The position numbers and the translations under genes are program-made. The notes under the pieces are model-generated. The model was not told the origin of the DNA and made no database searches. It saw only the letters and a program-made list of their open reading frames with translations. This document shows, one piece after another, positions 15,089 to 20,458 of a stretch of DNA of 64,000 bases. Each line of letters starts with the position of its first letter. Within the stretch, counting starts at the first letter, position 1. The DNA lies in contig DAOUKQ010000010.1 of assembly GCA_034421135.1 (NCBI GenBank), positions 21,659 to 85,658 on the forward strand, in the 5' to 3' direction. Source of the stretch: Dehalococcoidia bacterium. Lineage in GTDB: Bacteria > Chloroflexota > Dehalococcoidia > Bin125.

Positions 15089-16096
15089 ATGGCCACCCCG
15101 CTGAGACAGACGATCCAGGTCGGCAAGTACGTGGTTGGACAGCGGCTCCGGCGGGTCGAGCGCTATCCGCTGGTGCTGATGCTCGAGCCGCTGCTGCAAT
15201 GCAACCTCGAATGTGCCGGCTGCGGCAAGATTCAGCATCCCACCGACATCCTGCGCCGGCGCCTGACCCCCCAGCAGTGCTGGGACGCGGTCGAGGAATG
15301 CGGTGCGCCGGTTGTCGCGATCGCCGGCGGAGAGCCGTTGATCCACAAGGACATCGTCGAGATTGCGAACGGGTTCACCGAACGCAAGAAGTTCGTCTAC
15401 CTCTGCACCAACGCGATCCTGCTCGAGCGCAAGCTCGCCGACTTCGAGCCCAATCCCTATCTGACCTTCTCCGTCCACGTTGACGGCTACGAGCAGGACC
15501 ACGACGACTCAGTCTGTCGCGACGGCATCTGGGACGTCGCGATCCGCGCGATCGAGGAGGCCAAGGCTCGCGGCTTCCGCGTGACTACGAACAGCACCTT
15601 CTTCCTCGGGGCGCAGCCCGACCGGATCCGCATGATGTTCGACAAGCTCATGGAGATCGGCGTTGACGGGCTGATGATCTCGCCCGGGTACCCGTACGAG
15701 AAGGCGCCCGATCAGGAGCATTTCCTCGCTCGCAACCAGACCAAGGACCTGTTCCGCGACATCCTCAACGACCCGCCCAGGCACTGGAAGTTCAACCATT
15801 CCGAACTCTTCCTCGACTTCCTCAAAGGTGAGATCGAGTACGACTGCACACCCTGGGGCAACCCGACCTACACCGTCTTTGGCTGGCAGCGTCCCTGCTA
15901 CCTGATGGACGAGGGCTACGCCGAGAGCTGGCAGGAACTGATCGAAGAGACCGAGTGGGAGAACTACGGAGTCGCCTCGGGCAACCCCAAGTGCGTCGAC
16001 TGCATGGTTCACTCGGGTTACGAAGCCTCGGCCGTGATCGACGCCACGACCAACCTCAAGGCCGGCCTGCGCAGCTTCATCGGCACGATTCGCTAG
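15089..16096 (+). CDS. hpnH: hopanoid biosynthesis-associated radical SAM protein HpnH (adenosylhopane synthase)
   Basis: Near full-length collinearity with HpnH, from the N-terminal VGKYVVGQRL...RYPLVLMLEPL motif through CNLECAGCGKI to the C-terminal DCMVHSGYEA. Confidence 0.85.
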   Translation: MATPLRQTIQVGKYVVGQRLRRVERYPLVLMLEPLLQCNLECAGCGKIQHPTDILRRRLTPQQCWDAVEECGAPVVAIAGGEPLIHKDIVEIANGFTERKKFVYLCTNAILLERKLADFEPNPYLTFSVHVDGYEQDHDDSVCRDGIWDVAIRAIEEAKARGFRVTTNSTFFLGAQPDRIRMMFDKLMEIGVDGLMISPGYPYEKAPDQEHFLARNQTKDLFRDILNDPPRHWKFNHSELFLDFLKGEIEYDCTPWGNPTYTVFGWQRPCYLMDEGYAESWQELIEETEWENYGVASGNPKCVDCMVHSGYEASAVIDATTNLKAGLRSFIGTIR

Positions 16097-16119
16097 CCGT
16101 CTGAAGGGACACTCACAGT

Positions 16120-16833
16120 TTGAGTGGCACTCGCATCCTCTTTGTCGATGACTCCGGCAAGCCGTCTCCTCACGATGGCACCACCATGATGGTTGTTGGT
16201 GGTTTCTCCATTCCGTCTGAACATGTCCCTACCTTCAGCAGAAGAATTGCTGGAGCCAAGAGCCGGTTCTTTGGCCAACGCGGGGATCCTGGTCGTTGGG
16301 AGCTGAAGTCCACTGTCATCGTCCGAACCAAGAGCATGAGGCGAAGGAAGAACCGAGACTTTCTTGACGAGCTCATCCGAATTCTTGCAGACTCTCATTG
16401 CACGGTTTTCTCGGCGAGTATCGACAAGGGCCGGATGTTTCACGATATGAGCATCCAGACAACAATGCCTCTGCAAATGCAGGCGTTGCTTGAGCACTTT
16501 GATGCTGAGTGCCGGGCGTCTGGCGAGACTGGAATGGTGGTCTCTGATTGGTCCAGTCACCATCTCGATGCCCACGCTAGTAGCTGCGTGGCGACGTACA
16601 CCATCTCTCGGCGGCTACAGATTCATCCCACCCTCTACTTTGCAAACTCTTCGGGATCCCATGCCATTCAAGTTGCTGACATTGTCGCAGGTACCCGGCG
16701 ACGGCACCTTGAGGGCGATCTGAGCTTGACGCGAATCGCTGAGACATTTGGTCGGGTTCGCTCGGCTGATGCGATCCAAGCAGGACGGACACACGCCGGT
16801 CGACAATTCAGAAATCAGATCCAAGTGTTTTAG
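16120..16833 (+). CDS. DUF3800 family protein, in a low-GC island
   Basis: N-terminal ILFVDDSG and C-terminal SHAIQVADIVAG match the DUF3800 signatures (yiDESG ... IQlADl). TTG start. Local GC is ~50% against ~68% genome background. Confidence 0.55.
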   Translation: MSGTRILFVDDSGKPSPHDGTTMMVVGGFSIPSEHVPTFSRRIAGAKSRFFGQRGDPGRWELKSTVIVRTKSMRRRKNRDFLDELIRILADSHCTVFSASIDKGRMFHDMSIQTTMPLQMQALLEHFDAECRASGETGMVVSDWSSHHLDAHASSCVATYTISRRLQIHPTLYFANSSGSHAIQVADIVAGTRRRHLEGDLSLTRIAETFGRVRSADAIQAGRTHAGRQFRNQIQVF

Positions 16834-16941
16834 TGATCTCGGTGCTCTCAGCACTGACCTGTTCTCTCTGATACTGTGTGATTAGCCAGACGGTCCGGTT
16901 AGTAGGCTCTGCCGAATACAACCGGAATACCGCTGGCGACA

Positions 16942-16970
16942 GGGCCCCGGCACTCACGGGGCCCTTTTCG
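16942..16970 (+). terminator. rho-independent terminator (GGGCCCCG-gcactca-CGGGGCCC + TTTT)
   Basis: Perfect 8-bp GC stem followed by TTTTCG, downstream of the DUF3800 gene. It is the only classical T-tract terminator noted in the window. Confidence 0.5.
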
Positions 16971-18575: not shown

Positions 18576-18731
18576 GCAGGACCCTCTTCGCCTCTGTCTG
18601 GGGACTGGTTCGATGGGTTCCAGTCTACCTGCCGAGATATGGGCCCAACGACGTCGGAAAACCCTCTTCGCAGGGATGAAGCGTTGCATAACCGCGTCCT
18701 GTGCGCCAGGTACTGGCATAGACTGATCGGG

Positions 18732-19439
18732 ATGCTCACAATCACCGCCGCGCTGCCCTGGGAATCGAAAGCCGCACGAGCCGGTCAGGCGATCGCCGGC
18801 CGGGGCCGGGTGCGCATCATCACCACCGGCGTTGGCCCGGATCGGGCGAGGGATGCCGCCGAGGAGGAGTTTGAGCGCCATGAGCCGACGCAGGTGATCA
18901 GCATCGGCGTCGCCGGCGGACTGACCAACAACCTGCGGCGTCCGTCGATCACGATCCCGACCAGCGTCATCCGCCAAGGCGACAGCGCGGAGTTCAAGCC
19001 CGACGACGACCTGCGCAAGCAGGTCGTGCGCCTGCTGAACCAGGCCGACATCTTCTGGCAGTCGGTGACCAGCATTACGACGCCCAAGATTCTCTTCACG
19101 CGGCCCGAAAAACAGGAAGCCGCCGAAACCGGGGCCGAAATCGTCCAGATGGAAGACGCAGAGTGGGCCGAAGCATGTGAACAGGCCGGCATTCCCTTCC
19201 TCTCGATTCGTGTCGTGATGGATGCGCTGGACGACGACATTCCCAACGAGGTCGTCCAGTGGCGCGGCAAGCCGTCGGCGCTGGACATCGCGGTCGGCGC
19301 GATTCGCCGTCCCGGATTGCTGCCCGAACTGCTGTCGCTTGGCATCCAGCGCCAATCGGCAATCCAGGAACTTGAACGCGCCATGACGTTGATCATTCCC
19401 GCGATGACGCCCGAGCTGATCAGCGCTGACGTCGACTAG
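18732..19439 (+). CDS. hpnG: hopanoid-associated phosphorylase/nucleosidase HpnG (PNP_UDP_1 family)
   Basis: PNP_UDP_1-fold motifs (RVRIITTGVGPDRA, ISIGVAGGL, SIRVVMDAL). Supported by its position immediately upstream of the hpnA homolog and near hpnH. The start is the internal Met at 18732. Confidence 0.65.
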   Translation: MLTITAALPWESKAARAGQAIAGRGRVRIITTGVGPDRARDAAEEEFERHEPTQVISIGVAGGLTNNLRRPSITIPTSVIRQGDSAEFKPDDDLRKQVVRLLNQADIFWQSVTSITTPKILFTRPEKQEAAETGAEIVQMEDAEWAEACEQAGIPFLSIRVVMDALDDDIPNEVVQWRGKPSALDIAVGAIRRPGLLPELLSLGIQRQSAIQELERAMTLIIPAMTPELISADVD

Positions 19440-19456
19440 CCCACGAACTGAGCAAC

Positions 19457-20458
19457 GTGAAACGCGCGCTCGTCACCGGCGCGAACGGCTTCATCGGCGC
19501 GCATGTCGTACGCGCCGCGCTCGACGCTGGCACGGAAGTCCGGGCCATGGTTCGCGGGGGCAGCGATCAACGCAGCCTCAATGGGCTGCCGATCGAGATC
19601 GTCCACGGAGACCTCACCGACCCGGCGTCGCTCGCCAAGGCACTGGCAGGTGTCGACACGCTGTTCAACGTCGCCGCGCGATACGACCTCAGCCGCCGCG
19701 CCCGAGCCGACGCCTATCGAGCCAACGTCGACGGCACGCGCAACCTGATGCTCGCCGCGCTCCGAGCGCAGGTTGACCGCGTTGTGCACACATCCTCCGT
19801 CGCCGCAATCGGACCGCCCCATGACCCCGCTCGTCCCGCCGACGAAACGCAGTGGGCAACAGTCGAGGATGCGCCAGGACCGTACGAGGAGACCAAGATT
19901 CTCAGTGAGCGCCTGGTGCACGAGCTGGTCGAATCGGAGAGCCTGCCTGCGGTCTGCGTGCTACCCACCGCGCCGATCGGTCCGCTGGACCTGAAGCCCA
20001 CGCCCACGGGACGGTTAATCCGCGACTCGGCGTCGGGATCGATGCCCGCGTACATTCGCACAGCGGGCCTCAACATCGTCCACGTCCACGATGTCGCGGT
20101 CGGCCACGTACGTGCGGCCGAGGTCGGACTCGTTGACGAGCGCTACATCCTCGGTCATCTGGACGGCAACCTGACGCTGCGACAGATCATCGAGCGCGCC
20201 GCAGCAGCCGGCGGAGCGAACCCGCCTCGCCTGGCGATTCCCTCGTCGCTGGCCTACGCCGCCGCCTTCGTGGACGAGTACCTGGTCAGCGCGCTGACCC
20301 GTCAACAGCCCAGGGCGACCATCGCCGGCGTGCGACTGGCCCGTCAGCGCCAGTTCTTCGACCCGACGAAGGCAATCGAAGAGCTGAAGATGCCTCAGAC
20401 CGACCTGGGAGACGCATTCGGGGACGCCGTCGACTGGTTTCGTACACTCAGTGAATGA
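19457..20458 (+). CDS. hpnA: hopanoid-associated sugar epimerase HpnA (NAD-dependent epimerase/dehydratase family)
   Basis: LVTGANGFIGAHVV Rossmann motif and an extended-SDR fold. Synteny with hpnG. Confidence 0.65.
   Translation: MKRALVTGANGFIGAHVVRAALDAGTEVRAMVRGGSDQRSLNGLPIEIVHGDLTDPASLAKALAGVDTLFNVAARYDLSRRARADAYRANVDGTRNLMLAALRAQVDRVVHTSSVAAIGPPHDPARPADETQWATVEDAPGPYEETKILSERLVHELVESESLPAVCVLPTAPIGPLDLKPTPTGRLIRDSASGSMPAYIRTAGLNIVHVHDVAVGHVRAAEVGLVDERYILGHLDGNLTLRQIIERAAAAGGANPPRLAIPSSLAYAAAFVDEYLVSALTRQQPRATIAGVRLARQRQFFDPTKAIEELKMPQTDLGDAFGDAVDWFRTLSE

Follow-up and report, generated by a model that had tools for sequence, protein, structure and literature searches.

Does a stretch of an uncultured Dehalococcoidia (Chloroflexota) genome that carries hopanoid side-chain genes encode one half of a complete bacteriohopanepolyol pathway, or do these genes serve another purpose? 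The window, i.e., the whole stretch of 64,000 nucleotides that was analyzed, covers positions 21,659–85,658 of contig DAOUKQ010000010.1 (assembly GCA_034421135.1), and the genes in question are hpnH (15089–16096), an hpnG-type gene (18732–19439), and hpnA (19457–20458), all on the plus strand. Hopanes are much-used bacterial molecular fossils, and reading them depends on knowing the producers of hopanoids. For Chloroflexota, the literature records "lower levels of SHC conservation", and squalene-hopene cyclase (SHC) at low frequency in this phylum is already on record (PMC7306690). A literature search on hopanoid genes yielded no specific report for sponge-associated Dehalococcoidia, SAR202, or sponge Chloroflexi.

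The region very probably encodes the side-chain half of a bacteriohopanepolyol pathway that is complete. The genes for the steps from squalene synthesis to ribosylhopane are accounted for on the scaffold to which the window belongs, the exception being that of the reductase converting ribosylhopane to bacteriohopanetetrol (BHT). The region thus belongs to the known hpn pathway, a sound but ordinary result whose biology is otherwise textbook, and it extends the complete set of C35-hopanoid genes to an uncultured lineage of Dehalococcoidia, with 36–39 genomes at species level. In addition, the hpnG-type gene, hpnA, and the two genes that follow them form a compact operon offering candidates for the missing reductase.

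Open reading frames (ORFs) were scored with NCBIfam profiles at their curated cutoffs and with Pfam profiles, and those named in the first-pass annotation of the window were found in the ORF listing at the positions it had given. Relatives of hpnH were collected by scanning GTDB species, each represented by one genome, and synteny was assessed by querying the related loci with the window proteins (tblastn). The flank beyond the window was read from a 149.6-kb metagenome scaffold (ENA ERZ23495175, NGUY21-1 scaffold_73), of which the window forms bases 1312–65311 in reversed orientation; about 82 kb of this scaffold were inspected for hpn genes. HpnH is 82–97% identical in 38 loci of Dehalococcoidia/Chloroflexota metagenome-assembled genomes, 36 of them at 91–97%, and 70% identical in one further locus, L038. 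Beyond this clade, the best identities are 56–61% (cyanobacteria, Acidobacteriaceae, Bdellovibrionota, and others). Among the relatives is "Chloroflexi bacterium bin125" (MPNM), which was binned at 757x coverage from the sponge Aplysina aerophoba (PMC5649159), and the isolate names of several others resemble series of sponge metagenome-assembled genomes. The organism belongs to an uncultured lineage of Dehalococcoidia with at least one member from a marine sponge.

HpnH and the core hopanoid genes

The call of HpnH, rated as strong in the first-pass annotation, is fully borne out. The 335-aa protein, a predicted radical S-adenosylmethionine (SAM) adenosylhopane synthase, matches TIGR03470 from end to end (profile positions 1–318 of 318) with 514.6 bits (E 8e-155), more than twofold over the cutoff of 225.05. 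It contains a Radical_SAM domain (PF04055, 73.3 bits) and a C-terminal DUF3463 domain (PF11946, 191.1 bits), and its translation carries the cluster motif CNLECAGC (CX3CX2C). The word "strong" applies to HpnH only, as HpnG and HpnA both score under their curated cutoffs. [quoted passage not shown] It co-occurs with SHC on the same scaffold, and likewise on the complete chromosome OZ219765.1.

Homologs of shc, hpnC, hpnD, and hpnE were not detected in the 64-kb window (tblastn, E<=1e-3), and no cyclase was found in the window or within 10 kb on either side of hpnH in 39 Dehalococcoidia loci by a screen for QW and DxDD motifs and by tblastn with an Acidobacteriaceae SHC query. From the lack of core genes in the window, the first-pass annotation had placed the core pathway elsewhere, and it does lie on the same scaffold, about 6.1–13.5 kb to the left of window base 1 (positions 4977–12296 of locus L084; also L085). 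The block comprises, in order, genes for a polyprenyl diphosphate synthase, SHC (643 aa), a GNAT acetyltransferase, a dodecin, HpnC, HpnD, and HpnE. The SHC gene ends about 10.5 kb before window base 1 and about 25.6 kb upstream of hpnH; its product reaches 767.8 bits on TIGR01507 (cutoff 431.1) and carries the DVDDTA motif at residue 385 and eight QW-type motifs. One SQS_PSY gene scores as HpnC (285.7 bits, cutoff 250.45), and the amino-oxidase gene scores as HpnE (373.3 bits, cutoff 283.05). A search for the cyclase had been proposed, with its absence from the genome counted against the pathway. The SHC on the same scaffold excludes that absence, and the route from farnesyl diphosphate to diploptene appears to be present. 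The same core gene order occurs about 25 kb upstream of hpnH in OZ219765.1, and HpnD-like and HpnG-like matches appear to belong to at least eight of the genomes with hpnH. Between shc and hpnC, OZ219765.1 likewise keeps the GNAT and dodecin genes, for which no hopanoid role is known.

The linkage of the side-chain genes is conserved as well. In 35 of the 39 loci, the order is M20 peptidase, NifU, CoxM-like, MobA/IspD-like, hpnH, a VOC gene and an enoyl-CoA hydratase (ECH) gene (both on the minus strand), hpnG, and hpnA. Contig ends truncate three of the remaining loci, and L038 has a contiguous hpnH-hpnG-hpnA without the VOC/ECH pair.

In bacteria with an established pathway, HpnD, HpnC, and HpnE supply squalene, SHC turns it into diploptene, and HpnG removes adenine from the HpnH product to give ribosylhopane (PMC12583986, PMC13459092). 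The reactions of HpnH and HpnG are carried over to the present proteins from the genetics and biochemistry of those bacteria. By this analogy, HpnC, HpnD, and HpnE of the core block would form squalene, which SHC would cyclize to diploptene; HpnH would transfer the 5'-deoxyadenosyl group onto diploptene, yielding adenosylhopane; the HpnG-type enzyme would take adenine off adenosylhopane to leave ribosylhopane; and a reductase, for which HpnA and, less likely, the coupled short-chain dehydrogenase/reductase (SDR) are candidates, would convert ribosylhopane to BHT.

Several observations weigh against a complete pathway of this kind. Three of its proteins fall below the curated cutoffs of the families that they match best: HpnD, encoded by an SQS_PSY gene (240.6 vs 278.6 bits), the HpnG-type protein (109.8 vs 187.1 bits), and HpnA, by a margin of 6 bits (361.7 vs 367.65). 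The HpnG-like clade is isolated, with four representatives at E<1e-30 and identities of at most 42% outside the lineage. None of hpnN, hpnI/J/K, hpnO, and hpnP/R was seen in the approximately 82 kb of scaffold inspected, so that the end product is unpredictable beyond ribosylhopane or BHT. The side-chain module stands among genes of catabolic type (ECH, acyl-CoA dehydrogenase, flavin adenine dinucleotide (FAD) monooxygenase), which leaves room for another physiological context, and the pathway is read here from the genes of a metagenome-assembled scaffold.

The genetically defined hpn clusters of Proteobacteria (Rhodopseudomonas palustris TIE-1, Burkholderia cenocepacia, Methylobacterium extorquens, and Zymomonas mobilis) contain the same C35 set of HpnC/D/E, SHC, HpnH, HpnG, and HpnA, and the published order of reactions is shared. 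In contrast to these clusters, the genes here lie in two blocks about 25 kb apart, without the above-mentioned hpnN, hpnI/J/K, hpnO, and hpnP/R in the inspected stretch; HpnG, HpnA, and HpnD score under cutoffs that were trained on Proteobacteria; hpnA is followed by a coupled, clade-specific pair of SDR and DinB-like genes; and the GNAT and dodecin genes separate shc from hpnC. The shc-hpnH-hpnA-hpnG cluster of Acidobacteriaceae (L047, L070, and L072) resembles the window in that hpnH, hpnA, and a gene for an HpnG-type PNP_UDP_1 protein are adjacent. It differs in having shc directly upstream of hpnH and hpnA before hpnG. Its HpnH is 57–61% and its HpnA 37–39% identical to the window proteins, while its HpnG-type protein is a weak match (phmmer 17–20 bits).

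HpnA and the genes coupled to it

HpnA (333 aa) is an extended SDR associated with hopanoid genes. It covers positions 2–323 of the 327 of TIGR03466, the next family being SdmB at 199 bits, and is a divergent, borderline member of TIGR03466. The protein carries a Rossmann motif GANGFIG (GxxGxxG) and a catalytic motif YEETK (YxxxK), which predict an active extended SDR. The hpnA gene also adjoins hpnH or hpnG in cyanobacteria and Acidobacteriaceae. An identity of HpnA as the sterol demethylase SdmB was rejected, given a score of 199 bits against a cutoff of 600; the same secondary match is displayed by PDB 3wj7, a member of the HpnA family.

That structure, deposited as a "putative oxidoreductase", is the closest solved relative of HpnA (43% identity over 325 residues) and belongs to the same family with 502.9 bits on TIGR03466. 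A structure thus already exists for a family without an assigned function. The protein is presumably Gox2253 of Gluconobacter oxydans, which reportedly acts as an NADPH-dependent reductase of C7–C10 aldehydes (Yin et al. 2014, Proteins 82:2925). No hopanoid substrate is known to have been tested with it. This reported activity and the adjacency of hpnA and hpnG in both Dehalococcoidia and Acidobacteriaceae make HpnA a reasonable candidate for reducing the aldehyde of ribosylhopane.

[quoted passage not shown] HpnA, or less likely the SDR coupled to it, is offered here as a lead to this reductase. The latter is a classical SDR of 288 aa (20455–21321, plus strand; adh_short 130.4 bits) of the PRK06197 subfamily, where it scores 211.5 bits against a cutoff of 268. 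It is followed on the same strand by a DinB/MDMPI_N-like protein of 165 aa (21318–21815; MDMPI_N 43.3 bits, DinB_2 41.9 bits). The translational coupling of these two genes to hpnA, pointed out in the first-pass annotation, is consistent with the sequence, which has 4-bp ATGA overlaps at both junctions (hpnA/SDR at 20455–20458 and SDR/DinB at 21318–21321); the spacer between hpnG and hpnA is 17 bp. Scans for promoters and terminators gave hits at chance level only.

A broader proposal, possible yet doubtful, is that the hpnG-hpnA(-SDR-DinB) operon encodes the steps after removal of adenine: HpnA or the retinol-dehydrogenase-like SDR would be an NAD(P)H-dependent reductase, the SDR and DinB-like proteins would tailor the side chain, and the lineage would be a candidate source of unusual sponge hopanoids. 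If true, the reduction of the open-chain aldehyde form of ribosylhopane to bacteriohopanetetrol would gain its gene. The backing is circumstantial and consists of neighboring hpnA and hpnG genes in three phyla, the existence of the HpnA-family structure 3wj7, and the lack of an assigned BHT-forming enzyme in the literature.

In a separate proposal, the SDR and DinB-like proteins, possibly together with the VOC and ECH proteins, would be true tailoring enzymes that give a side chain unlike that of plain BHT. The ATGA overlaps that join the hpnA-SDR-DinB trio are consistent with this explanation, as are the presence of the trio in 32 related loci (46–96% identity, with an extra SDR paralog in some) and the record of unusual sponge hopanoids from an unknown producer (plakohopanoid, cited in PMC5367016). 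However, the association of the SDR and DinB-like genes with hpnA is limited to one clade, and neither gene stands beside hpn genes in L038, cyanobacteria, Acidobacteriaceae, or the other phyla compared. The hpnA/SDR junction also tolerates insertions, and DinB-fold proteins are without a known role in hopanoid chemistry; a sequence search of the PDB returned no relative of the DinB-like protein. Dedicated tailoring is considered unlikely.

The HpnG-type nucleosidase

The 235-aa protein encoded at 18732–19439 belongs to PNP_UDP_1 (Pfam 68.7 bits) and is a putative adenosylhopane nucleosidase. The start at 18732 is favored over that of the gene caller at 18684 (251 aa), most close homologs being 230–237 aa long. 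Its best NCBIfam family is HpnG (TIGR03468; 109.8 bits, E 1.3e-31), followed by PRK07077 (53.1 bits), futalosine hydrolase (42.7 bits), and the nucleosidase of 5'-methylthioadenosine and S-adenosylhomocysteine (MTA/SAH nucleosidase, MTAN; 30.9 bits), so that the lead of HpnG over MTAN amounts to 79 bits. Homologs were taken as the 150 nearest 50%-identity representatives found by running HMMER exhaustively over 1.84 billion representatives. At E<=1e-20, 148 of these match HpnG, 39 match MTAN, and 10 match futalosine hydrolase; seven of the 150 roughly reach the HpnG cutoff. Proteins of PNP_UDP_1 whose genes adjoin hpnH or hpnA in cyanobacteria (79–87 bits) and Acidobacteriaceae (80–96 bits) also have HpnG as their best match and miss its cutoff, which indicates that the TIGR03468 model is narrow. 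As the curated cutoff is not reached, the 18732 protein is classed as HpnG-type, a member of the broad clade set apart from the NCBI equivalog.

It may be asked whether this protein is instead an ordinary MTA/SAH or 5'-deoxyadenosine nucleosidase that clears by-products of SAM enzymes and does not act on adenosylhopane. In addition to the missed HpnG cutoff (109.8 vs 187.1 bits), its relatives in the PDB by sequence are MTA/SAH nucleosidases only (E about 1e-4), and the catalytic triad of MTAN is retained. Residues E11, E141, and D164 align with Glu12, Glu174, and Asp197 of Escherichia coli MTAN (profile alignment, hhalign probability 99.5%; the reference sequence is identical to that of PDB 1jys/3o4v), E141 and D164 being invariant and E11 at least 90% conserved among the 150 sequences. 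The two proteins thus share a fold family and catalytic positions; they differ in being only about 20% identical, and the substrate here would be a C35 lipid nucleoside.

Several lines of evidence argue against such a housekeeping enzyme. The MTAN models score 21–31 bits against 110 for HpnG, and far more of the nearest representatives match HpnG than MTAN (148 vs 39 of 150). The linkage of the gene to hpnA, 17 bp away on its 3' side, and to hpnH, at a distance of 2.6 kb, is kept throughout the clade. A distant homolog, P0055 (32% identity), is encoded within a canonical hopanoid cluster of metagenomic origin (L086), hpnC-dxs-hpnD-hpnE-shc-PNP_UDP_1-hpnH-MMPL, where it stands beside shc and hpnH. 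That cluster differs from the present locus in being a compact single unit that also includes dxs, an HpnN-like transporter of the MMPL family, and an HpnO-like aminotransferase; these three were not seen near the window genes. Furthermore, the window already has a true MTA phosphorylase (MTAP; TIGR01694, 322.6 vs cutoff 274.85 bits), located within a SAM-cycle cluster, and housekeeping MTA turnover is covered by this separate enzyme. By its established mechanism, HpnH incorporates the adenosyl group and therefore yields no 5'-deoxyadenosine to clear. An ordinary MTA/SAH or 5'-deoxyadenosine nucleosidase is accordingly very improbable. The reading as HpnG, which the first-pass annotation had set against that of an MTA/SAH nucleosidase, is favored by the family scores, the 150 nearest representatives, and the P0055 cluster.

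The HpnG-type protein may also bear on the chemistry of the adenine-releasing step. HpnG has been regarded as a putative phosphorylase whose phosphorylated product was never seen, and the choice between hydrolase and phosphorylase is unsettled in the literature (PMC12583986, PMC13459092). As the Glu/Glu/Asp set of the MTA/SAH nucleosidases is kept in the 18732 protein, its cleavage of adenine is probably hydrolytic and would release ribosylhopane directly.

Two further observations concern this family and SAM metabolism. A relative of the HpnG-like protein, P0053 (201 aa, on a 930-bp contig), has 80% identity over its N-terminal third and is annotated as PIG-L (LmbE-like deacetylase, PF02585) plus PNP_UDP_1, which may represent a fusion or a gene-calling artifact; HpnK of the route to BHT cyclitol ether has been described as a deacetylase (PMC12583986, PMC13459092). 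The SAM-cycle/salvage cluster at 40436–46241 (plus strand) encodes a phosphoribosyltransferase, MTAP, a PfkB kinase, a GNAT protein, adenosylhomocysteinase, and SAM synthetase, and lies about 20 kb downstream of the gene for the SAM-consuming HpnH.

Neighboring genes and inserts

Three genes lie between hpnH and hpnG. The first encodes a DUF3800 protein (16120–16833, plus strand; 39.8 bits on Pfam DUF3800) and is a variable insert of low GC content. The second encodes a VOC/glyoxalase-like protein of 257 aa (17001–17774, minus strand; Pfam Glyoxalase_3, with a weak methylmalonyl-CoA epimerase match below cutoff), and the third an enoyl-CoA hydratase/isomerase family protein of 257 aa (17790–18563, minus strand; ECH_1 202.7 bits, NCBIfam equivalog cutoffs not reached), whose start is placed at 18575 by the gene caller. 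The first-pass annotation had described the side-chain module as split by a foreign DUF3800 island and by the VOC/ECH pair. For DUF3800 this view stands: a homolog at the hpnH/VOC junction occurs in the window and in two of the 39 relatives (L017, 91% identity; L014, 64%), i.e., in three of 40 loci, and the GC content of 16000–16999 is 0.55–0.57 against 0.62–0.71 in most neighboring 500-bp windows. This accessory gene was inserted recently. For the VOC/ECH pair it does not stand, as a recent split is ruled out by the conservation of the pair across the clade (35 related loci). The VOC gene, convergent to hpnH, is kept in all of these, at a distance of only 3–6 bp from hpnH in six relatives, and the ECH gene, divergent from hpnG, encodes a product of 71–97% identity across the related loci. 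L038 lacks the pair, as do the hpnH loci of all the other phyla compared. It is an old clade-wide neighbor, the VOC gene being without a known hopanoid role, and neither the VOC and ECH genes nor DUF3800 are members of the pathway.

It is hardly credible that the module modifies or scavenges exogenous triterpenoids from the host or other symbionts within the alicyclic-compound catabolism proposed for SAR202-type Chloroflexi. In favor of this reading, its catabolic-type neighbors (enoyl-CoA hydratase, VOC, acyl-CoA dehydrogenase, FAD monooxygenase, and luciferase-like monooxygenase) are conserved in the clade, and oxidation of sterol- and hopanoid-like rings has been hypothesized for SAR202 (PMC5395668). 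Against it, a de novo route lies complete on the same scaffold (polyprenyl synthase, HpnC/D/E, and SHC) and is kept in a relative, and no functions other than biosynthetic ones are known for HpnH and HpnG (PMC12583986, PMC13459092). The absence of the VOC and ECH genes from L038 and the other phyla with hpnH argues for a shared neighborhood and not for a shared function. Synthesis of hopanoids by the lineage itself is the preferred explanation.

The junctions hpnH|VOC, hpnA|SDR, and DinB|acyl-CoA dehydrogenase are hot spots of insertion across the loci (L002–L040), receiving MgtE (eight loci), a second SDR paralog (seven loci), DUF3800, a SocA/Panacea antitoxin, an RCC1-repeat protein, questin-oxidase-like genes, and an SDH-type protease. 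The last of these is present in the window, where a second stretch of low GC content (0.55–0.58; 21853–22882, minus strand) between the DinB-like and acyl-CoA dehydrogenase genes encodes a 247-aa serine protease, ClpP-like and of the SDH type, and contains an ORF of 88 aa. Homologs of the protease occur in nine related loci (38–77% identity), and the others have different genes or none at this junction. PADLOC gave no credible defense-system match for the DUF3800 or SDH-protease gene, and a repeat search around both low-GC inserts revealed no convincing insertion scars.

Farther from the hpn genes, the window encodes a luciferase-like monooxygenase of the FMN/F420 type (35380–36552, minus strand), and a pair of Polyketide_cyc2/SRPBCC genes lies just to the left of the window (L083/L084), along with genes for an F420 ligase and an F420-dependent oxidoreductase. 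Monooxygenases of this kind fit SAR202-type catabolism (PMC5395668). Toward the right end, a long minus-strand run of small ORFs with a high GC content at third codon positions (46305–63727), potentially of use in the phylogenetic placement of the genome and starting with ribosomal protein S9 (Pfam), resembles ribosomal protein operons.

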